34,663 nucleotides of DNA from a virus: UHGV virus genome UHGV-0173140; one strand, written 5' to 3'. Shown here one piece after another: positions 1,904 through 6,011 of the stretch; within the stretch, counting starts at the first letter, position 1, and every line of letters starts with the position of its first letter. The notes under the pieces are model-generated. The model ran no database searches and was not told the origin of the DNA. It worked only from the letters and a program-made list of their open reading frames with translations. Made by a program: the position numbers and the translations under genes.

Positions 1904-2134
1904 ATGGGAATGAAACAGATTTGGGATGGTAAAAACCTCCCTCCCGTTGGTTGTGAAGTGTTGATCCATCTGGCAAGCATTAACAAGTGGGTGGCACGAA
2001 CTGTTCAGGGTTATGAAATATGGCCCTCTGTTTATGAAAACGATACTGCACATCACAGGATAAACATAAAATTTGAAGATAATGTTCGTCTGTTATGTGA
2101 TGTGCGACCTCTTGACTGGCGTGAACCTGATTAA
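1904..2134 (+). CDS. hypothetical protein with WDGxxLPPVG domain
   Basis: ATG 1904 with aggag SD 9 nt upstream (track 1868-2134); shares a ~60-aa domain with the product of 5550-6011. Confidence 0.5.
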   Translation: MGMKQIWDGKNLPPVGCEVLIHLASINKWVARTVQGYEIWPSVYENDTAHHRINIKFEDNVRLLCDVRPLDWREPD

Positions 2135-2154
2135 CTGGGTTCGATGGTTGTACT

Positions 2155-2188
2155 GAGTGGTTAAAATGGAATCCAAATATAACCACTC
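2155..2188. other. inverted repeat (9-bp stem gagtggtta/taaccactc, 16-nt loop) between convergent genes
   Basis: Seen directly; no clear T-run, so a terminator role is uncertain. Confidence 0.25.
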
Positions 2189-2200
2189 TAATACGTATAA

Positions 2201-3160
2201 TCACGGGATAACATTTATATCTTGAGGGAGAGAATAAGCAACCCGGCAACGACAATTAATCACGTTCGCGGCACTACCGTTAGGATCACGAGGAAACATA
2301 AGTGGTCCTAACGGCGTTGAAAACGGTCTGCCCATTGGTATCCAGCCATTCATTTCACCTGTGGAAATATGCGCGTCACGTGTCCGACCATCCTTCCTGT
2401 ACAACCAACGTTTTAATAACTCGTTACTGATCGACCCTGTAACCTGCCCTTGACGAATAGCCTGGTCCTGACCAACGGATACAGCACGAAGTGATTCAGT
2501 ACGCGCTATTGTCTCTGTGCGCTGTTTTACGTAACGCAAGCGTGTCTGTTCGATTATCTGGTCAATCTTCGCCTGTGATAGTTTCCCGGCACTTACAGCG
2601 TTCTTCGCACTGTCTGTAACAGTGGTCAGACTGTTCATATAACCTGCTTCACCTTTTTCCAGTGCTGATCGCAGACGTTGAACCGTCATTTCCTGCCGTG
2701 TGGTTAACCCTATTGATGATCGAAAATCACGGGCTATCTGACGCGGATTTCGTCCGGTTACCACACCCTGGTTAACAGCAATCTGAACAGCTTTGACTGT
2801 TTCATCACTGACTTCACGGATCAGTTGTCCGACATAGTTGTTGATATATGTGCTGACCTGTGGGGTGACCAGACTGAACACAACCGGACCTGTCACAGCC
2901 GCTTTCGGTAAAACCTGAACGACTACACGACCTGATTCGGCGATCGCATCTTCAATAACCGGGCGCAACTGTGCACTAAGTTCATCAGGGAGTGTTTCAA
3001 GAATAGGGAGTAGCCCGGCAATACCCTGAGTTTCAATGATGTATTCCAGGTTAGCTAACGACTCACTACGACGCACGTTTTCCCACACGACATCAAGTGC
3101 TTCGCGAATGCGAGCGTCATACTTGTCTGAAATATCCGGGTATGGGTCTTTAGTAGCCAT
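2201..3160 (-). CDS. head morphogenesis / minor capsid protein (SPP1 gp7 / Mu F-like)
   Basis: 319 aa with the C-terminal NCRCR motif typical of Phage_Mu_F proteins; sits downstream of terL and portal on the same strand. Confidence 0.65.
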   Translation of the reverse strand: MATKDPYPDISDKYDARIREALDVVWENVRRSESLANLEYIIETQGIAGLLPILETLPDELSAQLRPVIEDAIAESGRVVVQVLPKAAVTGPVVFSLVTPQVSTYINNYVGQLIREVSDETVKAVQIAVNQGVVTGRNPRQIARDFRSSIGLTTRQEMTVQRLRSALEKGEAGYMNSLTTVTDSAKNAVSAGKLSQAKIDQIIEQTRLRYVKQRTETIARTESLRAVSVGQDQAIRQGQVTGSISNELLKRWLYRKDGRTRDAHISTGEMNGWIPMGRPFSTPLGPLMFPRDPNGSAANVINCRCRVAYSLPQDINVIP

Positions 3161-3188
3161 AAAAAAGCCTCAGTTAACACACTGAGGC
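3161..3188 (-). terminator. hairpin plus T-run on the minus strand, immediately upstream of the MuF-like start
   Basis: Stem gcctcagt/ctgaggc (3167-3188) followed on the minus strand by tttttt (plus 3161-3166); the 3' arm contains the gagg SD of the downstream gene. Confidence 0.45.
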
Positions 3189-3203
3189 CGATTATATCAC
3201 ATG

Positions 3204-3347
3204 TTACGGGCGTGGAAGATTACGTTTTTCAGTTCCCTGAATGCGGTTCTTAACTTCGCGGATCTGTTCTTCCAGAAACTGTAACGCTTTTTGTGCTCGT
3301 TCGTAGTCTATTTCAAGTTCACGTAATAATTTTTCATCTTTTGTCAC
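3204..3347 (-). CDS. small hypothetical protein (47 aa, GTG start)
   Basis: Open frame VTKDEKLLRELEIDYERAQKALQF...; overlaps the upstream stop; weak aagga SD. Confidence 0.25.
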   Translation of the reverse strand: MTKDEKLLRELEIDYERAQKALQFLEEQIREVKNRIQGTEKRNLPRP

Positions 3348-3528
3348 GAGTATAACGTCCTTTAAAACCGGGTCTGACCATCAACTTACCATTCACCACC
3401 GCGTGAAATTCACCGTTGGTGTCATCCATATATTTATAAACTGTCGCTTTGTTACACCCAATCCGCCTGGCAAGTTCTGTCACGTTGCCATAAACGGTGG
3501 GTAGTAATTCAGAAATAGTTTGAGCCAT
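3334..3528 (-). CDS. small HTH DNA-binding protein
   Basis: 64 aa; TELARRIGCNKATVYKY resembles an AlpA/Cro-like helix-turn-helix. Confidence 0.45.
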   Translation of the reverse strand: MAQTISELLPTVYGNVTELARRIGCNKATVYKYMDDTNGEFHAVVNGKLMVRPGFKGRYTRDKR

Positions 3529-4233: not shown

Positions 4234-4453
4234 CAGCATTCTCCATAATTTGTGACGGATTTCTTAAAATTGGTGCGTACATTGAACCGTCAGACCATGC
4301 AAAAGTGTTTGTTGTCTTATTAAGAACAACACATGTAGCCCAGTCTGGCGCTTCACTCCAGTCTACTTGTTGTGTTTTCATTCGATAGTCAAGTGATTGT
4401 TTTTCACTTTCAGCATCATATGCAGGTATGTTCCACGGATGTTCAAACATCAT
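4151..4453 (-). CDS. hypothetical protein
   Basis: ATG 4453 with gagga SD 5 nt upstream; first gene of a minus-strand cluster. Confidence 0.45.
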   Translation of the reverse strand: MMFEHPWNIPAYDAESEKQSLDYRMKTQQVDWSEAPDWATCVVLNKTTNTFAWSDGSMYAPILRNPSQIMENADDFEIFEKRPCGPATPVKTVNDTESPW

Positions 4454-4483
4454 TTATTCCTCATTGGTTAACGTTGACAGAAG

Positions 4484-4525
4484 TTTAAAATAATTCTTGA
4501 CACATTGCAAGCAGTAACATTAACA
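4484..4525 (+). promoter_or_regulatory. conserved promoter copy (TTGACA 4496-4501); opposite strand reads TTGCAA-17-TAAACT (candidate divergent promoter)
   Basis: gtttaaaataattcttgacacattgcaag; the reverse complement gives a -35/-10 pair facing the gene starting at 4453. Confidence 0.5.
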
Positions 4526-4560
4526 TTTGTCACGAACGAAACACACTGAGGAATCAAACA

Positions 4561-4731
4561 ATGACTAATGAAGATGTTGCTAAACAATTGCGAGAAATCG
4601 CGGATCTGATTGATAGTGGTGAACTTTTACCAATTCGTGTCCGTAAGAATAACGATATTTTAGGTCAAACTGGTTCACTTGAAATTGTTTTTCATTTACC
4701 CGCAAAACAAGAGGAATCAAACAATGACTAA
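4561..4731 (+). CDS. small hypothetical protein (56 aa)
   Basis: ATG 4561 preceded by gaggaatcaaacaATG, the same leader that precedes dut; its 3' end overlaps the dut start. Confidence 0.35.
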   Translation: MTNEDVAKQLREIADLIDSGELLPIRVRKNNDILGQTGSLEIVFHLPAKQEESNND

Positions 4732-5227
4732 CCTGTATATCAAAAAACTAACACCCCGCGCTGAACTTCCGACACGTGCAACACCGGACAGCGCCGGGTT
4801 AGACGTTCGTGCTTGCCTGTGGGAAGAATCGGTAACTATATTCACAGAATCAGGCGCTAAAGTGGAACGTCCGGTTGTTGCAGGAACAATCGCATTATGG
4901 CCCGGCGACCGCGCTATGATCCCCACTGGTTTGAAAATGTCAGTTGATAGCGGATATTGCATTAAATTCTATCCACGTTCCGGCATGAGTCTTAAACACG
5001 GTTTGTCACTGATCAACTGTGTGGGTATCGGTGATCGTGATTACAAAGAAGAATACTACGTTACGCTGACTAACCACGGGCAGAAATTACAGACTATCGC
5101 AGACGGTGAACGCGTTTGTCAGCTTATGGTTGAACGTGTCGAACCTGTTAATCTGGTTGAAGTGGAAGAATTACCAGATGTTGATAGTCAGCGTAATGGC
5201 GGGTTTGGATCAACAGGACGGGTGTGA
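4724..5227 (+). CDS. dut: dUTP diphosphatase (dUTPase)
   Basis: All five dUTPase motifs seen: SAGLDVRA, PRSGMSLKHG, GIGDRDYKEE, RVCQLMV, RNGGFGSTG; start at ATG 4724 with caagagga SD (track ORF 4679-5227). Confidence 0.85.
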   Translation: MTNLYIKKLTPRAELPTRATPDSAGLDVRACLWEESVTIFTESGAKVERPVVAGTIALWPGDRAMIPTGLKMSVDSGYCIKFYPRSGMSLKHGLSLINCVGIGDRDYKEEYYVTLTNHGQKLQTIADGERVCQLMVERVEPVNLVEVEELPDVDSQRNGGFGSTGRV

Positions 5228-5553
5228 TGAACAATCGTGATTTATTAGTCAACGCAGCACGGGCTGCTGAAATCCAGGGTAAATATTACGTCGCGTACGA
5301 CGAACGTTACATAAACGAAGGTATTGATATAGGTAATGGTCGCCTGTGGAACCCTCTTACACGTAATGAGGATGCTTTCAGTCTGATGGTTAACATGTAC
5401 ATGGATCTGGATGTTCGTGACAACGAAGTGACGGTTAATAACCCTGATACTGGCGTTAGTTATAAGCAACCAGTTAGCCACGGAGAAGACCGTGAAAAAG
5501 CAACGCGTTTAGCGATCGTCAACTGTGCAGCAATTGTGGGGTCGTATTTATGA
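5227..5553 (+). CDS. hypothetical protein
   Basis: ATG 5227 overlaps the dut stop (TGATG); no recognisable domain. Confidence 0.5.
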   Translation: MNNRDLLVNAARAAEIQGKYYVAYDERYINEGIDIGNGRLWNPLTRNEDAFSLMVNMYMDLDVRDNEVTVNNPDTGVSYKQPVSHGEDREKATRLAIVNCAAIVGSYL

Positions 5554-6011
5554 AAAGTTTTTGTGAAAAACACATGCGTGATAACAGTGATCAAAAACAT
5601 GGTATTTGTCCTGATTGTGTGAATGAAAAACAACAATGGGATGGTGAAGGTTTACCACCTGTCGGTACAGTATGCGAGTGGTTAGCAAGCGTTGATCACG
5701 ATTGGGTAAAGGTGACGGTATTAGGTCATCATGGTGATGATACATGGTTAAAGCCTGATGACGGTACACAATCGTTTATTGTAGGTAACGCGGAAAACTT
5801 CAGACCTATTCCGAAAGAACGTGAAAAGGCTATTGATGAAATTTTGCAAATCATCGATCACAATGGTGTAGATCCTCTTAATTCTGCAAAACAAATTTAT
5901 GATGCTGGTTATCGTAAAGTGTTAGCAATGCCCGGTTTTGAGTGGCGCTATGTTTGTAAATGTTGTGGTACTCGTGTTCAACCAGGTCAGGAACTTAATC
6001 ACGGGTGCTAA
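5550..6011 (+). CDS. hypothetical Cys-cluster protein with WDGxxLPPVG domain
   Basis: ATGA overlap with the upstream gene; N-terminal CPDC and C-terminal CKCC; central domain paralogous to 1904-2134. Confidence 0.5.
   Translation: MKSFCEKHMRDNSDQKHGICPDCVNEKQQWDGEGLPPVGTVCEWLASVDHDWVKVTVLGHHGDDTWLKPDDGTQSFIVGNAENFRPIPKEREKAIDEILQIIDHNGVDPLNSAKQIYDAGYRKVLAMPGFEWRYVCKCCGTRVQPGQELNHGC

Follow-up and report, generated by a model that had tools for sequence, protein, structure and literature searches.

Do two small genes that lie apart in a phage genome, each encoding a protein with the same short signature, carry one domain by descent, and if so, what might that domain do? The window analysed here is the whole 34,663-nucleotide (nt) stretch of viral DNA catalogued as UHGV virus genome UHGV-0173140, and the genes, which we call gpA (1904–2134, + strand, 76 amino acids, aa) and gpB (5550–6011, + strand, 153 aa), drew attention because an original prediction held that both products contain W-D-G-x-x-L-P-P-V-G within a shared, paralogous domain. 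To the first question the answer is yes: we are highly confident that the two proteins are homologous and are built around the same kind of small barrel. To the second, our answer is more tentative. The barrel may be an adaptor that binds other proteins.

Homology of the two genes

Translation confirms both open reading frames (ORFs), stop codons included. gpA begins MGMKQIWDGKNLPPVGCEV and has AGGAG 8 nt upstream of its ATG; the start codon of gpB overlaps the upstream stop (ATGA), and its product reads …NEKQQWDGEGLPPVGTVCEW…, with KQQWDGEGLPPVGTVCEW at residues 27–44. The predicted motif is present in both, in the longer form K-Q-x-W-D-G-x-x-L-P-P-V-G, together with ~20 further residues. BLASTP aligns the proteins with 19 identities in 35 positions (E-value, E, 5e-7), and their Smith–Waterman score, 76, lies far above those of shuffled controls (5,000 shuffles of each protein; 27±4.9, maximum 62), none of the 10,000 reaching it. 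Relatives drawn from databases agree: when profiles of 12 gpA relatives and 27 gpB relatives, the latter built without gpA, are compared with one another, they align over 35 columns with a probability of 94.9% and E 4e-8. Within the window, a hidden Markov model (HMM) of the gpB-type core, searched against the six-frame translation, finds gpA as its sole other match (E 1.2e-6; next 2), and an HMM of the gpA type finds gpB (E 1.3e-7; next 0.15). Because each family's HMM singles out only the other gene, the window contains exactly two copies of the domain; neither motif scans nor HMM searches of the six-frame translation yielded a third. That a short motif might have arisen without common ancestry, an idea to which we give practically no credence, is already refuted by these controls, for although the sequence-level alignment is only ~35 residues long, no shuffle attains its score, the reciprocal profile matches are unique in the window, the independent profiles concur, and both proteins have one predicted fold in common, with the same terminal R-P.

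The similarity detectable by sequence spans residues 4–38 of gpA and 27–61 of gpB, that is, the N-terminal arm, strand 1 and strands 2–3. A shared domain of ~60 aa, as originally proposed, is not recovered at this level; it does emerge from the predicted structures, as residues 7–69 of gpA and 30–86 of gpB. The two genes sit, as had been claimed, in different cassettes: gpA is the final gene of a rightward cluster at 652–2134, gpB lies within another at 4561–7017 that also includes a dUTPase gene, and leftward genes separate the two. Since the products are homologous and belong to different rightward clusters, it is correct to speak, as the prediction did, of a family of paralogous domains in one genome, but the family is not private to this genome, and the paralogs appear to be old ones.

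Several comparisons show that gpA and gpB did not arise by recent duplication. Each resembles its own subfamily in other phages more closely than it does the other protein: gpA matches phrog_26831 at E 9.3e-17 and cross-matches phrog_3483 (E 7e-6) and phrog_7798 (E 3e-5), and gpB matches phrog_3483 at E 5.6e-22 and phrog_7798 at E 2.1e-15, with a cross-match to phrog_26831 at E 0.019. In the motif, the DNA of the two genes is identical at only 26 of 39 positions, and at 6 of the 13 third positions. The gpA type is also rare—10 phage records and 21 IMG/VR loci—and a gpB-type gene lies within 10 kb at just four of those 21 loci. At these four, gpA is 79–99% identical to the copy in the window, compared with 39–62% at most single-copy loci. 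All 12 full-length gpA homologues begin MGMKQIWDG.

The first 8 kb of the window match the Escherichia phages KarinMuster_Bas82, vB_EcoS_AVIO78A and PDP46 at 96–97% identity, and the Salmonella phages 9NA, Sasha and Sergei at ~82%, and because of these matches we take the window to come from a 9NA-like (Nonanavirus/Sashavirus) siphovirus of E. coli. In the records of related phages, the counterparts of both gpA and gpB are annotated 'hypothetical protein'.

A predicted Tudor/SH3-like barrel and its added modules

AlphaFold models of the two proteins, made from family alignments and compared with the Protein Data Bank (PDB) by Foldseek, predict in each a five-strand barrel of ~57–63 residues, Tudor/SH3-like in form. 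The gpA model has a mean predicted local distance difference test (pLDDT) score of 82.6, with strands at 18–23, 28–33, 36–41, 51–57 and 60–63 and a 3-10 turn, followed by V67-R68-P69; the gpB model scores 83–91 over residues 31–80, with strands at 41–47, 51–61, 64–69 and 76–78, a 3-10 turn, and then F84-R85-P86. The terminal R-P is common to both barrels, and is part of a conserved motif in each family, DVRPLDW in the gpA type and FRPI in the gpB type. In gpA the barrel domain, residues 7–69, corresponds to 1922–2110 (+ strand): an arm, W7-D-G-K-N-L-P-P-V-G16, followed by C17-E18, W29, five predicted strands and the closing V67-R68-P69. The signature of the family is present throughout (W7, G9, L12, P13-P14-V15-G16, C17-E18, W29, V67-R68-P69), with N11 at the position of the second glycine. 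In gpB, residues 30–86 (5637–5807, + strand) have the same predicted organization, with the arm W30-D-G-E-G-L-P-P-V-G39, then C42-E43, W52, five strands and the closing F84-R85-P86, and here every feature of the signature is found (W30, G32, G34, L35, P36-P37-V38-G39, C42-E43, W52, F84-R85-P86).

Nearly all of the top PDB matches to the gpB model are Tudor domains (TDRD3, PHF1, SMN, SND1, TDRD1, PSHCP), with target-normalised template modelling (TM) scores of 0.6–0.76, root-mean-square deviations of 2.0–2.4 Å over 53–58 columns, and E 3e-3 to 5e-2. The gpA model finds the Rtf1 Plus3 domain and Tudor domains, at target-normalised TM 0.55–0.67 and E of at least 0.09. Sequence profiles give fainter echoes of the same fold. 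Among 150 representative relatives, Pfam TUDOR, Agenet and SH3_3 recur as weak matches (three members each), and Chromo_MORC2 and Phage_ProQ_C_like match weakly in a single member each; for Pfam TUDOR (PF00567) itself, neither gpA nor gpB matches at E≤1, and the best of the three weak relatives reaches E 1.1e-3. The phage profile also matches P0112, a eukaryotic protein of 3,152 aa with 12 Pfam Tudor domains, whose repeats align as PPVGSLCCTKFSEDSQWYRVEVLG with the phage pattern PPVGTVCEWLASxDxDWxKVxVLG. The headline E of 5e-22 for this match is inflated by six near-identical repeats of ~16.5 bits each, and so it counts as one supportive observation.

What follows the barrel differs between the two proteins. 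gpA has no C-terminal helical module, and is a member of the family at the level of the barrel superfamily only. gpB has four modules. Directly after the barrel, residues 87–123 (5808–5918, + strand) form a predicted helical module: a helix that includes R91-E-K-A-I-D-E, a loop, and a second helix that ends Y117-D-A-G-Y-R-K123, the helices being placed at 90–101 and 109–118 in the model. This module is conserved throughout the long form of the family, with R91, A119, G120 and R122 each present in at least 90% of the 150 representatives. Among close relatives, the segment comes in several interchangeable versions, and this accounts for gpB being only 79% identical to the Bas82-type protein when the surrounding DNA is ~96% identical.

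The original prediction also had cysteine clusters flanking the domain in the longer protein. Both are real, but the C-terminal one does not abut the barrel because the conserved helical module of ~40 residues, ending IYDAGYRK, intervenes. The N-terminal cluster, C5-x2-H8-x11-C20-x2-C23 (FCEKH...GICPDCV; 5562–5618, + strand), is a candidate zinc knuckle, and the C-terminal extension, PGFEWRYVC136-x2-C139-G-x-x-V-x-P-G-x-E-L-x-H151-G-C153 (5931–6008, + strand), a candidate CCHC zinc knuckle or ribbon. Each cluster has its four Cys/His ligands arranged as two short knuckles, and the relatives that carry the cluster conserve them; both look like single-zinc knuckles, and each probably holds one zinc ion. 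Confidence in the model is low at both ends of gpB, with pLDDT <50 at the N-terminal cluster and the C-terminal one appearing as a short beta-hairpin. Among 222 family members sampled, 35 carry the C-terminal extension; C136, C139, H151 and C153 are invariant in all 35, and all 35 are of the enterobacterial Nonanavirus-like branch. The N-terminal pattern, F-C-x-K-H-x11-12-G-I-C-x-x-C-V, occurs in eight of the 222, seven of which also have the C-terminal cluster. Zinc-type clusters are absent from gpA and from most of the family. By this distribution, the clusters of gpB are to be regarded as lineage-specific additions outside the shared domain.

The family itself is large. Searched with a profile, 1.84 billion cluster representatives yield 5,209 proteins at E≤1e-3, of which 2,229 reach E≤1e-10, and a word-indexed search finds 5,170 clusters; among the matches listed by the latter, all are without a Pfam domain and all are named 'hypothetical'. 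The search of other phages that had been suggested as a check turns up the gpB type in 136 phage records by tblastn, 61 of them from Pseudomonas (including PAK_P3, PA5oct and D3 orf65), 57 from Klebsiella and 10 from Escherichia. A strict DNA pattern finds 13 prophage loci, 11 in named Pseudomonas, Serratia or Vreelandella and two in metagenome bins labelled Enterobacterales and Proteobacteria. Going by these matches, the gpB family is spread over phages and prophages of Gammaproteobacteria. Scans of gpA, gpB and their long or multi-domain relatives against Pfam and NCBIfam gave nothing significant, and sequence searches of the PDB with each protein and with the 150-sequence profile gave no match. 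Two weak PDB sequence hits were rejected as noise, one between gpB residues 90–120 and the N-terminus of TetR (E ~1.1, the model having two helices and no three-helix helix-turn-helix, HTH) and the other to uL30 (E 0.62).

Across the 150 representatives, the near-invariant positions fall into four blocks—W30, G32, G34, L35, P36 (100%), P37, V38, G39, C42 and E43; W52; F84, R85, P86 and R91; and Y117-D-A-G(99%)-Y-R-K123—and positions 44–83 of the barrel are variable. In most members this core is C-terminal, and the N-terminal region before it is variable, the median being 64 residues. Some (P0075, P0077, P0088, P0093, P0131 and P0172) have two barrels in tandem, each followed by FRPIRTPEQ, and many have repeated N-terminal 'DWxxAPxGATH' or 'MKLIDILARELxxWP' modules. 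These arrangements suggest a set of small phage modules that are shuffled among one another. The closest relatives of gpB point the same way. In them, an N-terminal 'DWxxAPxWA' module is fused to the barrel; in the window this module sits in a separate gene, at 4151–4453 on the – strand, a third gene fragment with a 'DWSEAPDWATCV' module whose product matches the gpB homologue P0008 by BLASTP at E 5e-6. That the DWSEAPDWATCV module is fused N-terminally to the barrels of gpB homologues in sister phages points to domain shuffling.

The ORF at 4151–4453 overlaps another on the – strand, at 3700–4239, and the two correspond to a single protein of 246 aa in Bas82, Bas82_0021, which has a DWSEAPDWATCV module at its N-terminus and DUF6378 at its C-terminus. 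The window has a frameshift near the equivalent of residue 92 of Bas82_0021, beyond which the sequence diverges for a short distance; a mutation, an error in sequencing or a programmed shift could each be the cause.

Accessory status and possible function

gpA and gpB are dispensable in nature, and hence non-essential accessory genes, because PDP46 cleanly lacks gpB and because the gpA of 9NA is stopped at the W29 codon; in the window, their two clusters are situated between structural genes. The 9NA ortholog (L017:10001-10231; ~14705–14929 of the 9NA record) is 80% identical to gpA and has an in-frame stop exactly at that codon, reading …TSINK*VPHK… in a region that the 9NA record leaves unannotated; this copy is a genuine pseudogene, unless the stop reflects an error in sequencing the type phage. 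Homologues elsewhere are found in same-strand arrays of small accessory genes, early ones where the timing is known. In D3, orf65 is one of several small genes running along the same strand downstream of cI, with a Lar gene nearby; in PA5oct, EST35_0055 is inside the long terminal repeat, whose genes, gp34–gp105, are reported to be early and mostly non-structural (PMC7318152); and copies in P. aeruginosa prophages occur among small DUF551 and NinX ORFs.

The explanation that best accommodates all of this, and that we regard as probable though not strongly so, is that gpA and gpB belong to one large phage family, each being an old member that has been maintained independently of the other. gpA would be a bare barrel, and gpB a barrel with the usual C-terminal helical hairpin (the YDAGYRK end) and two lineage-specific Cys/His clusters; in each, an N-terminal W-x-G-x-G-L-P-P-V-G arm would precede strand 1, and an [F/V]-R-P strand would close the barrel. 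The barrel would serve as a protein-binding adaptor, neither a binder of nucleic acid nor a reader of methyl marks, with the invariant arm, strand beta5 and the YDAGYRK helix together making a constant surface, and with specificity supplied by the variable face of the barrel and by swappable N-terminal modules. It would act early in infection, on a host or a phage protein.

The adaptor role is the less secure part of this account, and we would put its likelihood a little short of even. It is favoured because the family is acidic, which is unusual for general nucleic-acid binders: the median isoelectric point (pI) of whole proteins is 5.1, 75% of barrels are net negative, only 4% have a net charge of +2 or more, and the gpB barrel has a pI of 4.4. 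It is favoured, too, because the conserved constant surface adjoins a variable barrel face and swappable N-terminal modules, because homologues sit in early small-accessory-gene arrays, and because most prokaryotic Tudor-like domains whose roles are known serve to dock proteins (PMC12839542).

Several points weigh against our account. The fold models are predictions, and were read one by one rather than superposed; the Foldseek E-values are weak for both proteins. The literature on LPPVG, on the locus tags of homologues and on Tudor-like phage proteins yielded no characterised member of the family. Early timing rests on distant homologues rather than on this phage, and assumes that locus tag 0055 is gp55. 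A promoter-like site, TTGACA-18-TAACAT (4497–4526, + strand), does lie upstream of the gpB cluster, but it is a consensus match only, and such sites number 20 in the region compared with 19.6 expected from shuffles, which is not above chance. Acidity, finally, lowers the likelihood of specific nucleic-acid binding without abolishing it, and two zinc-knuckle-like clusters are a frequent feature of proteins that bind nucleic acids.

These last two points bear on the alternative that survives best, in our estimation unlikely yet worth taking seriously: that the proteins are nucleic-acid-binding regulators in which a Tudor-like barrel—compare PSHCP, the C-terminal domain of ProQ, and SH3 barrels of the Sso7d type—and, in gpB, zinc knuckles bind DNA or RNA of the phage or the host to control early expression or replication. 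The PSHCP Tudor domain (6nnb) among the Foldseek matches, the one relative with a weak Phage_ProQ_C_like match, and the conservation of the CHCC and CCHC clusters are all in keeping with this. The charge of the family is not, and the zinc clusters are missing from gpA and from most other members; the slight likeness of gpB 90–120 to TetR would help had it been significant, and had the model contained a three-helix HTH in place of two helices.

A special case of the adaptor is a module that docks on RNA polymerase (RNAP), the barrel binding the beta subunit so that host transcription is redirected or inhibited at an early stage of infection. This we consider improbable. Bacteria do have Tudor-type RNAP binders, among them RapA and BrxHII (PMC12839542) and CarD (PMC5906684), the predicted fold and the early or accessory positions of homologues would suit such a role, and members with two barrels recall the tandem Tudor pair of RapA. 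But Pfam CarD_TRCF_RID matches neither gpA, gpB nor any of the 150 relatives, no chain of CarD, Mfd or RapA is among the best 50 Foldseek matches, and nothing ties the family directly to RNAP.

A role in the virion or its assembly is suggested by position, and is very unlikely. gpA stops 67 nt short of the head-morphogenesis gene (2201–3160, – strand), and 33 nt separate the gpB cluster from the portal gene (7050–8405, – strand), but gpA and gpB are on the opposite strand, convergent with these structural genes; PDP46 does without gpB, and 9NA has a nonsense copy of gpA; and homologues occur in early or immunity-proximal regions (D3, PA5oct) and in nin-like regions of prophages.

Least of all among the functional alternatives do we credit a reader of methyl-lysine or methyl-arginine on the eukaryotic model, even though the best structural matches (TDRD3, SMN, SND1, TDRD1) bind methyl-arginine and the family aligns in sequence with eukaryotic Tudor repeats: V53 of gpB, the residue aligned to the cage tyrosine of 'WYRA', is aromatic in just 7% of the 150 representatives, the other cage positions are aromatic in 57% (44), 43% (66) and 35% (67), and only W30, W52 and F84, in arm or core positions, are conserved. 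Because the canonical aromatic cage is not conserved, we file the domain as Tudor/SH3-like in predicted fold, outside Pfam TUDOR, and not as a methyl-mark reader.

For the window alone, what results is an ordinary case of two accessory genes that share a common phage domain, with nothing mechanistically surprising. The gain is for the family, labelled 'hypothetical' in all records examined: boundaries, signature residues, a predicted fold and architectures are now available for more than 5,000 clusters without Pfam, NCBIfam or PDB coverage, and this definition makes the family testable. It is also experimentally tractable, since both genes are present in Bas82 of the BASEL collection, as Bas82_0026 and Bas82_0017, and natural variants exist without gpB (PDP46) or without a functional gpA (9NA).

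Genomic neighbours and comparison with known systems

Nearly all of the genes near gpA and gpB are of unknown function. Directly upstream of gpA, the gene at 1614–1898 (+ strand) encodes a Cys-rich protein of 94 aa that begins MCIMCDC... and ends ...AYCPFCGEKQE; it belongs to PHROG 7033 (unknown function), and its CPFCG C-terminus is similar to the zinc-ribbon motifs of small phage proteins such as Lar. The product of 1075–1458 (+ strand, 127 aa) matches Pfam Phage_VG64 (E 7.5e-46) and PHROG 478, 'recombination directionality factor', a label that it also bears in the Bas82 record. It begins MKKLTLCALLTTTLTAC, which resembles a lipoprotein signal peptide with a lipobox, and the label looks doubtful for such a protein of a virulent phage. 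Downstream of the gpB cluster, the 33-nt gap before the convergent portal gene holds a perfect hairpin, AAGGGACC…GGTCCCTT (7022–7043), that resembles a bidirectional terminator, with 8–9 pairs and then a T-run on both strands. Farther on, at 8856–9539 (+ strand), are two neighbouring ORFs of 111 aa, the first of which has short periodic repeats (…NGEVNISGNSGDIKTVNGNVSVTGDSGNIKTVNGNITT…), as might be expected of a beta-helix or bactofilin-like repeat protein.

Both proteins already have a place in PHROGs, gpB in families 3483 and 7798 and gpA in 26831, all of 'unknown function', and each cross-matches the family of the other. PHROGs assigns no fold, domain boundary or function, and files the two types apart; both their connection and the Tudor-like assignment come from the present analysis.

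DUF551 (PF04448), which starts W-x5-LP-x-VG-x-x-C, has a similar N-terminal pattern, EWIKCSDHLPNVGDKCLIM compared with QWDGEGLPPVGTVCEWL, and DUF551-like genes adjoin LPPVG genes in P. aeruginosa prophages, one such neighbour also having a 'DWKSAPEWA' module. Neither gpA nor gpB matched DUF551 in the Pfam scan, and the link is not significant: hhalign gives E 0.04 and a probability of 1.3% against a DUF551-like prophage neighbour, and E 0.26 against the short family. In the P. aeruginosa prophage CP124658.1 (L006:3295-3732), a protein with a weak DUF551 match, encoded four genes upstream of an LPPVG gene, begins EWIKCSDHLPNVGDKCLIM and also contains 'NIDWKSAPEWASHA', a module of a type that elsewhere occurs in fusion with LPPVG barrels.

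The bacterial Tudor-like domains that interact with RNAP—those of CarD and Mfd (the RNAP-interaction domain, RID), the N-terminal tandem Tudor of RapA, and the N-terminus of BrxHII—resemble the phage barrels as small prokaryotic protein-docking barrels, some of them in tandem (PMC12839542), but differ in giving no sequence-profile match and in being absent from the best 50 structural matches.

There is also a likeness to eukaryotic Tudor domains (PF00567, clan CL0049; TDRD3 3pmt, SMN 4a4e, PHF1 8h43), which are SH3-like barrels of five strands and ~55–60 residues, as the phage domains are predicted to be, and which share with them P-x-V-G-x-x-C ... D-x-x-W-x-[KR]-[AV]-x-V-L. The window's proteins differ in falling below Pfam thresholds, in their unconserved aromatic cage, and in belonging to an acidic, phage-borne family; the eukaryotic domains, for their part, have no counterpart of the invariant W-x-G-x-G-L-P-P arm or of the C-terminal YDAGYRK helix. 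One might go further, and see in the LPPVG family a very large, undescribed, phage-borne branch of the Tudor 'royal family' that has kept direct sequence similarity to the eukaryotic repeats (PPVG-x-x-C...D-x-x-W-x-[KR]-V-x-V-L-G) and that forms a modular toolkit for targeting host proteins, deployed early. This we think doubtful. Were the similarity due to shared descent, and not to independent arrival at a common barrel pattern, close prokaryotic relatives of eukaryotic Tudor would be found in phages of Proteobacteria, and the toolkit would consist of a constant barrel and helix with swappable N-terminal modules.

Among phage proteins at large, a survey of the Viral AlphaFold Database counts small SH3/Tudor-like barrels with the most frequent folds of bacterial viruses, at ~1.3% of clustered proteins; they form its largest phage-specific fold clusters and are uncharacterised (PMC12487901). 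The LPPVG family fits this account, to which we liken it by description and not by cluster membership. If its barrel does prove to be a host-targeting adaptor, the family would account for a noticeable share of this SH3/Tudor-like 'dark matter' of phages.

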